DNA from: a virus
Lineage: Duplodnaviria; Heunggongvirae; Uroviricota; Caudoviricetes
Strand: one strand, 5' to 3'
Length of the DNA: 45,042 nt
Virus record (IMG/VR): IMGVR_UViG_2563366951_000002
Coordinates: 1-45,042 of that record
Made by a program: the position numbers and the translations under genes. The notes under the pieces are model-generated. The model was not told the origin of the DNA, did no database searches, and worked only from the letters and a program-made list of their open reading frames with translations. Within the stretch, counting starts at the first letter, position 1. Every line of letters starts with the position of its first letter. Shown piece by piece: positions 36,994 to 37,344 of this stretch.

Positions 36994-37344
36994 ATGGGTA
37001 AGGCCAAACTTCTAATTTGTGGTGTTCTTTTATCAGTTGTCGGCACGTCAGAGGCCTTAGCTGATACTCAGTGCGGGCCGTATCGCCTCACTGCGGGCAA
37101 AGAAGGACTAATGCTTATTAACGGGGTAAAACCTGAAACGCAAAAAATGTCTTTTCTCAAGTCTAAAGATGACTACCAAAACATGAAAGCAGAATGGATG
37201 GTTGCAACCGACCAACCCGGCCGCTGGGTTGGGCTTGAGTACATCAAGCGCAACGGCAAAGCCATTCTCAACGCACAGTGGTTGCAAGCCAGCATGAACG
37301 CGCCGCGTCAGTATGCAACATACGACTGCGTGAAGGTGAAATGA
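36994..37344 (+). CDS. Secreted small protein with cleavable signal peptide (116 aa); moron in the tail cluster
   Basis: ATG at 36994 within track ORF 36934-37344; MGKAKLLICGVLLSVVGTSEALA signal-like N-terminus; two Cys in the mature part. Confidence 0.55.
   Translation: MGKAKLLICGVLLSVVGTSEALADTQCGPYRLTAGKEGLMLINGVKPETQKMSFLKSKDDYQNMKAEWMVATDQPGRWVGLEYIKRNGKAILNAQWLQASMNAPRQYATYDCVKVK

Follow-up and report, generated by a model that had tools for sequence, protein, structure and literature searches.

To our knowledge, the proteins described so far that act within the periplasm to block the entry of phages are few: Spackle of phage T4 is one of these, and the HXS system, reported in 2026, is said to be another. 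Spackle (gp61.3) is a small protein with a cleaved signal peptide that is made by a contractile-tailed phage, acts in the periplasm and blocks the tail-tip lysozyme of incoming phage (PMC7677548). Further precedents are provided by T5 Llp, by Cor of phages T1, phi80 and N15 and by HK97 gp15, all of them exported or lipoprotein accessory genes that lie among tail genes and protect from infection (PMC9586334, PMC3594210); as regards exclusion proteins encoded within baseplate modules, our search of the literature returned analogies only. The gene described here, at 36994-37344 of the window (the whole stretch of viral DNA that was analysed, 45,042 nucleotides), resembles that of Spackle in encoding a small protein with a predicted cleavable signal peptide in a contractile-tailed phage, but Spackle exhibits no beta-barrel, is expressed as an early gene by a phage that is virulent, and has no sequence relation to the window protein. 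With respect to the lysozyme target of Spackle, the tape measure of the window likewise carries a wall-cutting SLT domain, although one phage that encodes the barrel is without it. Llp, Cor and HK97 gp15 show no homology to the window protein either, whilst the lipoprotein variants found at the same position in related phages share their general layout. Llp and Cor are lipoproteins acting on a known outer-membrane receptor, whereas the window protein is predicted to be soluble; HK97 gp15 resides in the inner membrane and its gene has a promoter of its own, which the window gene lacks. What is new here is an uncharacterised exported phage accessory protein, and the main insight is the layout of its locus.

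The window comprises the entire prophage of a temperate myovirus from an enterobacterium, which also encodes RecT, DnaB, portal, sheath and a contractile-tail baseplate module. The features on which the following text draws are these:

1419-2489, minus strand: integrase
9410-10144, minus strand: CI-like repressor
32760-34967: tape measure with SLT lytic transglycosylase domain (SLT E 3e-25)
35898..36992, plus strand: baseplate hub (PHROG 196, E 1e-84; Pfam E217_GP41, E 5e-6, below the cut-off)
36994-37344, plus strand: small-protein gene (ATG 36994, TGA 37342-37344), 116-aa precursor
36994..37062, plus strand: predicted Sec / signal peptidase I signal peptide (23 aa, MGKAKLLICGVLLSVVGTSEALA), cleavage before Asp24
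37063..37341, plus strand: mature 93-aa domain, predicted eight-stranded up-and-down beta-barrel with C27 in the first strand and C112 in the last
37403..37416: perfect palindrome of 14 bp, CTGTACATGTACAG, a short way ahead of the antitoxin start
37427..37840, plus strand: Phd/YefM-like antitoxin, 137 aa from ATG 37427, reading frame open from 37409
37840..38247, plus strand: Doc (death-on-curing) toxin (Fic/DOC, E 1.5e-11; TIGR01550, E 6e-23; PHROG 577, E 1.5e-33)
38270..38289, plus strand: terminator-like hairpin with T run, after Doc and before the spike, from a consensus scan
38306..39043, plus strand: baseplate spike of the gp138-N / gpV type with apex motif (PF18352, E 1.4e-41), the downstream border of the slot

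The order of genes is thus tape measure, Dit-like protein, Pam3-gp18 plug, hub, small gene, Phd-like antitoxin, Doc and spike (named 'membrane-puncturing spike protein' in RefSeq), followed by a sheath-initiator-like protein, baseplate J and DUF2612. The position between baseplate genes given in the initial annotation is therefore correct, with the hub upstream and the spike downstream of the small gene and the toxin-antitoxin pair. The hub stop codon (TAA, 36990-36992) precedes the start of the small gene by 1 nt.

The reported 116-aa reading frame was found exactly at 36994-37344 on the plus strand, and sequence comparison shows it to be a real gene under purifying selection: homologues in RefSeq are annotated from the ATG equivalent to 36994, and pairwise dN/dS of the mature region is 0.10-0.125, a range in which hub, spike and baseplate J also fall, with no signal of gene-wide positive selection (pairwise dN/dS of about 0.1). 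A longer reading started by TTG at 36934 was rejected, as it overlaps the hub gene and is not conserved, and a frameshift fusion of hub and barrel was likewise rejected, since the upstream open reading into the hub gene is present in only 14 loci. By profile match, the protein falls into PHROG 3443 (residues 6-116, E 1.2e-45), a family that is catalogued as of unknown function, and it is 76% identical (E 9e-69) to WP_042043841, which RefSeq names 'STY1065/STY2022 family phage-derived protein'; it is a direct member of this family, with the same length and the same post-hub position and nothing that differs. Pfam, the local NCBIfam release and PADLOC contained no model that matches the small protein, none of the PADLOC anti-phage families matched it at E <= 1, and a full-text search of the literature returned no paper on STY1065/STY2022. 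A large protein collection yielded 80 homologues of about 111-125 aa, all from Enterobacterales, and the HMMER scan over 1.8 billion cluster representatives returned 61 clusters only, indicating that the barrel family is narrow. Within the module, the barrel gene is the most divergent (mean pairwise protein distance 0.31 versus 0.14-0.27 across 44 loci), and only C27, L92 and C112 are invariant across the family once members at 23-36% identity are included. Its GC content is 48% as against 53-57%, and the GC profile stays at 44-48% from the 3' end of the hub through Doc, with 52-57% on both sides. The 3' third of the hub gene (36550-36992) exhibits lower GC and greater divergence than the rest, with an extra stretch of about 10 residues in some alleles, and the C-terminal part of the hub co-varies with the barrel gene as if both were exchanged together.

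The N-terminus of the small protein displays a three-part layout: MGKAK, the hydrophobic stretch LLICGVLLSVVGT and SEALA|DTQCG. A Sec signal with an ALA-D cleavage site had been proposed for it, and judging by feature rules applied to the sequence rather than by a trained predictor, this proposal stands, with n-region, h-region and cleavage features all present and conserved across homologues: the hydrophobic core is kept in all 41 of 41 homologues, K or R occurs within the first 8 residues in 40 of these, and at the cleavage site Ala is found at -1, A, S, V or C at -3 and Asp at +1 in each of the 34 sequences compared (34/34). The signal peptides range from 18 to 29 residues in length and their sequence drifts freely whilst the features are kept, and in the AlphaFold model this region forms an isolated helix of low pLDDT. 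The h-region of the small protein does not end in a lipobox ([LVI][ASTVI][GAS]C): its sole early cysteine, Cys9, lies in LLIC, has Ile at -1 and is too near the N-terminus. Sec export with cleavage after ALA is thus strongly supported by these sequence features. The two cysteines previously ascribed to the protein are right for its mature form, in which C27 and C112 are both invariant, but the precursor contains three, Cys9 being located within the signal peptide. AlphaFold predicts the mature domain as an eight-stranded beta-barrel, which would fold in the periplasm and is probably pinned by one C27-C112 disulfide. Fold searches returned generic barrels only, and the viral structure library contained nothing at E <= 0.001, with a Serratia phage lipoprotein as the best match (E 0.046).

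In order to compare the hub-spike junction across relatives, 80 IMG/VR loci fetched via the hub protein were analysed together with annotated phages and E. coli prophages, and the 85 loci containing both hub and spike were counted. The region occurs in about 1% of complete E. coli genomes as well as in Salmonella, Klebsiella, Citrobacter, Serratia and Yersinia. The barrel domain directly follows the hub in 76 of the 85 loci, and does so too in phages SEN34, RCIP0034, ST340-VIM1phi10.1 and vB_EcoM-683R1. Seven of the 76 barrels form the C-terminal end of a larger protein (292-296 aa) which also has a lipoprotein signal (LSGC or VSGC) and a domain of about 200 aa, designated X; because of these seven loci, in which the barrel is part of a lipobox lipoprotein, we place the barrel outside the cytoplasm. 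Among the nine loci without a barrel, five encode a 240-aa lipoprotein, one a 374-aa lipoprotein and one a different 182-aa signal-peptide protein, while the remaining two have no gene after the hub and show a 400-nt gap. The lipoprotein variants are as follows:

L020:6069-6959 (LSGC), L014, L031, L032, L036, L041 and L072: lipobox, domain X and barrel (292-296 aa)
L034:6070-6795 (LTSC), L043, L062 (LTGC), L076 and L078: lipobox, coiled coil and domain Y (about 240 aa)
L064:6089-7213 (ISGC): lipobox, X and Y in a 374-aa lipoprotein

Domains X and Y matched no family or solved fold, and the model of the X+Y lipoprotein (pLDDT 87) matches generic helical bundles only. Given these contents, the first post-hub position nearly always encodes an envelope-targeted protein built from shuffled modules, and the gene content marks the junction as a hot spot that favours exported proteins. 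At the hub-spike junction of Burkholderia phage BgManors32 an unrelated 152-aa signal-peptide protein is encoded on the opposite strand (L091:4493-4951, minus strand).

The second position, between the first gene and the spike, is highly variable among loci. Its cargo comprises Phd/Doc, DUF4236 on the opposite strand, signal-peptide proteins, membrane proteins, a P22-type antirepressor domain and a T5orf172 protein, and many of the cargo proteins match no family. Examples are found at these places:

L027:6436-6822, L056:6420-6740, L045:7133-8071, L080:6543-7805 and L003:4358-4675 (minus strand): second-slot cargo

The first position, that of the exported protein, is stable, and is followed by a distinct second one in which the cargo turns over fast.

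In more distant phages with the same order of hub, spike, sheath initiator and baseplate J, namely Providencia phage PSTCR3 (hub 35% identical) and the virulent Salmonella phage BP63 (hub 27% identical), the hub adjoins the spike with nothing between. A baseplate component would be present wherever the homologous baseplate is, and the barrel is absent from PSTCR3, BP63 and nine close loci; conservation in all related phages, which the initial annotation had named as the observation that would count against its reading, was found for most close relatives, but not for all of them and for no distant ones. As the barrel is absent or replaced at this junction in relatives, it does not appear to be a part of the baseplate, and the retention of the export signal in every homologue also argues against a tail component. 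The earlier reasoning that Sec export speaks against a virion structural protein therefore agrees with the comparison, both in the direct hub-spike junctions of PSTCR3 and BP63 and in the lipoprotein or secreted replacements: gene content strongly supports an accessory protein that is not built into the tail, and makes a structural role improbable. Pseudomonas phage E217 also has an ORF between hub gp41 and tip gp43; it is unrelated to the barrel, has no signal peptide and goes unmentioned in the main text on the E217 virion structure (PMC10329688). The paper on SEN34 contains no virion proteomics.

The distance from the hub stop to the barrel start has a median of 1 nt (range -32 to +12, 69 loci). 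The promoter scan returned one weak site inside the hub gene, which is fewer than expected by chance, and no terminator was found between 37344 and 37427. With neither an intergenic promoter nor a terminator, the barrel gene must be read along with the late tail genes at the very least, and its arrangement strongly supports transcription within this operon and translational coupling to the hub gene. These results bear on the earlier designation of the gene as a moron, which is apt only in part: it is inserted between genes that are adjacent in PSTCR3 and BP63, but it has no promoter or terminator of its own and is not sporadic. Like a classical moron in the sense of Hendrix and Juhala, it is an extra gene of somewhat lower GC between otherwise adjacent genes; unlike one, it starts 1 nt after the hub stop and is present in most relatives. 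The classical definition fits the Phd/Doc cassette much better than the barrel gene.

This cassette is composed of an antitoxin that falls just under the cut-offs of two models (PhdYeFM_antitox, 28.3 bits, cut-off 29.8; TIGR01552, 20.0 bits, cut-off 20.8), the identical protein in E. coli ABWA45 being named Phd/YefM by RefSeq, and of a Doc toxin that scores 81 bits against TIGR01550 (cut-off 38.7); the Doc ATG overlaps the antitoxin stop (TAATG), and the pair has the make-up of a type II Phd/Doc system. At 137 aa, the antitoxin is roughly double the length that is typical of Phd: only its first 45 or so residues match Phd and a long C-terminal extension follows. The palindrome CTGTACATGTACAG occurs once in the window and in none of 100 shuffles, and is likely the operator of the toxin-antitoxin cassette, belonging to the cargo rather than to the small gene. 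Terminator-like sites in the region do not exceed the number expected by chance, so that the hairpin at 38270-38289 is only suggestive as the mark of where the cassette ends; it lies inside the late tail operon, and if functional, late transcription must read through it. Phd/Doc is present in about seven related loci, as compared to 76 of 85 for the barrel, and in four loci Phd/Doc is 100% identical while the barrel alleles are 98, 72, 67 and 67% identical to that of the window. The presence of an identical cassette behind different barrel alleles indicates that barrel and toxin-antitoxin pair were acquired separately, with Phd/Doc as a recent and independent arrival in the second, variable position. 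The island of about 1.3 kb that had been described is hence accurate as a measure of the hub-spike gap (1313 nt), but the barrel (76/85 loci) and the toxin-antitoxin pair (about seven loci) do not form one unit.

Our best explanation for the function of the small protein, which we put forward tentatively, is that of an exported periplasmic accessory barrel, encoded at the first position of the slot in the late operon, that blocks phage entry. Following Sec export and cleavage after ALA, the protein would fold in the periplasm into its eight-stranded barrel, where it would act as a binding or blocking protein and protect the cell, whether infected or lysogenic, by stopping phages at the step of envelope penetration; the target could be parts of the tail tip that enter the periplasm, or a component of the host envelope that these parts need. 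A binding role is favoured over that of an enzyme since only C27, L92 and C112 are invariant and the gene is the most divergent of its module. The protective role is a best guess by analogy, based on Spackle, Llp and HK97 gp15, the interchange with lipoproteins and the lack of conserved catalytic-looking residues. Counting against entry blocking are the lack of a match to an anti-phage family, the generic fold matches and the lack of co-variation beyond linkage. For the latter, distance matrices from 44 loci were compared between the barrel and the tape-measure N-terminus, SLT domain, Dit, plug, hub, spike, sheath initiator, baseplate J and DUF2612: the hub C-terminus correlated best (rho 0.76), and neither the SLT domain (0.65) nor the spike (0.59) stood out. 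The correlation falls with physical distance, and thus no specific partner emerges. A role as general inhibitor of SLT domains or lytic transglycosylases was also considered and is weakened by a metagenome phage (L107:1286-3304) that encodes the barrel between hub and spike together with a 672-aa tape measure in which no SLT domain is detectable; the barrel is retained there, and Spackle-like inhibition of the wall-cutting enzyme of the tail is therefore not general. In this phage, plug and hub are moreover separated by an additional gene of 227 aa.

A broader version of the entry-blocking explanation, which we regard as somewhat doubtful, would see the SEN34-like hub-spike junction as a dedicated 'envelope slot' in which the first gene is always exported and is assembled from interchangeable modules (the barrel, the helical domain X and domain Y), each either soluble or lipid-anchored, so as to give a new family of periplasmic gatekeepers that are made with the tail and stop other tails or envelope-piercing weapons after penetration of the outer membrane. 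If the barrel and its lipoprotein relatives do block entry, they would add a widespread family from enterobacterial prophages, and the hub-spike junction would mark a predictable place to find more such proteins; in practical terms, genes of this kind influence whether a lysogen can be infected by a given therapeutic phage. If the function is directed at the host instead, the barrel is one more small conversion gene. In either case, the picture of a single 1.3-kb island is corrected to one of two positions, a stable exported protein and turnover cargo.

Host-directed function is the alternative that survives best, although we consider it unlikely: here, the barrel would serve as a conversion or immunity-like factor that neutralises a toxin acting in the periplasm (a type VI effector or bacteriocin) or binds an envelope component. 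Immunity and inhibitor proteins are commonly small, disulfide-bonded periplasmic barrels with variable surfaces, and the build of the window protein matches this usual design. Distant homologues are moreover stand-alone chromosomal genes in unrelated neighbourhoods with no phage genes nearby, showing that no phage is needed for the fold to work, which is also in keeping with a role directed at the host. Such homologues (L099, L100, L101 and L105, gene at 6001 in each) are located between yciY and yciI, after fliE and beside LysR regulators, and all of them have a signal peptide and both cysteines. A 113-aa distant homologue, 36-41% identical to the phage versions, lies in a tRNA-side island (L096:5396-8208) together with a lipoprotein gene, two unknown genes, an orphan Hcp gene and an integrase remnant; this neighbourhood is a single hint of an immunity-type role, and the association with Hcp amounts to one case. 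Neither in the window nor among the 85 related loci does an effector gene lie beside the barrel, and a hub-coupled position in the late operon is odd for a gene that serves the uninduced lysogen.

The same coupling, which is tight in all of the 69 loci where the distance was measured and leaves no space for an intergenic promoter, together with a promoter signal not above chance, would suit a helper of the lytic cycle, which is made late and either masks a receptor or envelope site in order to spare progeny from debris or tunes lysis. T5 Llp is a precedent for this (PMC9586334), and so is the Pseudomonas Zip protein, which is proposed to protect progeny (bioRxiv 10.1101/2024.03.05.583538). However, a soluble periplasmic protein is poorly placed for masking a surface receptor, some close relatives are without the family and the chromosomal homologues occur in contexts without a lytic cycle; such a function is thus decidedly unlikely.

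An avidin-like binder that sequesters biotin or another small molecule in the periplasm is very improbable. The predicted eight-stranded antiparallel barrel is that of the avidin family, and there is local sequence resemblance (YIKRNGKAILNAQWLQAS versus FIDRNGKEVLKTMWLLRS of avidin), but Pfam Avidin does not match, the per-domain E-values are 5.8 and 20, hhalign gives a probability of 46% for avidin and 2.5% for streptavidin, no signal remains once the family profile is broadened and the tryptophans are unconserved in distant members. Streptavidin and avidin share barrel size and topology with the window protein, as do the MliC/PliC lysozyme inhibitors, themselves small periplasmic or lipoprotein barrels; membership of MliC/PliC was rejected, with no Pfam match and an hhalign probability of 21% in which only the signal peptides were aligned. 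Finally, it is hardly tenable that the protein is built into the tail or baseplate or assists in assembly, with a hydrophobic N-terminus that is no export signal: position at the junction in 76/85 loci, coupling to the hub gene and purifying selection resembling that of structural genes speak for it, but the barrel is missing from relatives with the same baseplate and from nine close ones, lipoproteins replace it or are fused to it, the Ala-X-Ala cleavage site and paired cysteines are conserved, chromosomal homologues exist and the E217 hub-tip ORF is likewise not among the structural proteins discussed (PMC10329688).

Elsewhere in the prophage, the DnaB-type helicase gene (11879-14359, plus strand) encodes 826 aa, in which the N- and C-terminal helicase domains are split by a weak LAGLIDADG stretch; from its sequence, this insert looks like an intein or homing-endonuclease insertion. 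A gene of the acyltransferase-3 family (42643-43686, minus strand) is situated on the opposite strand just after the tail-fibre genes, and is likely to be a second accessory gene of the prophage that functions in O-antigen acetylation (serotype conversion).
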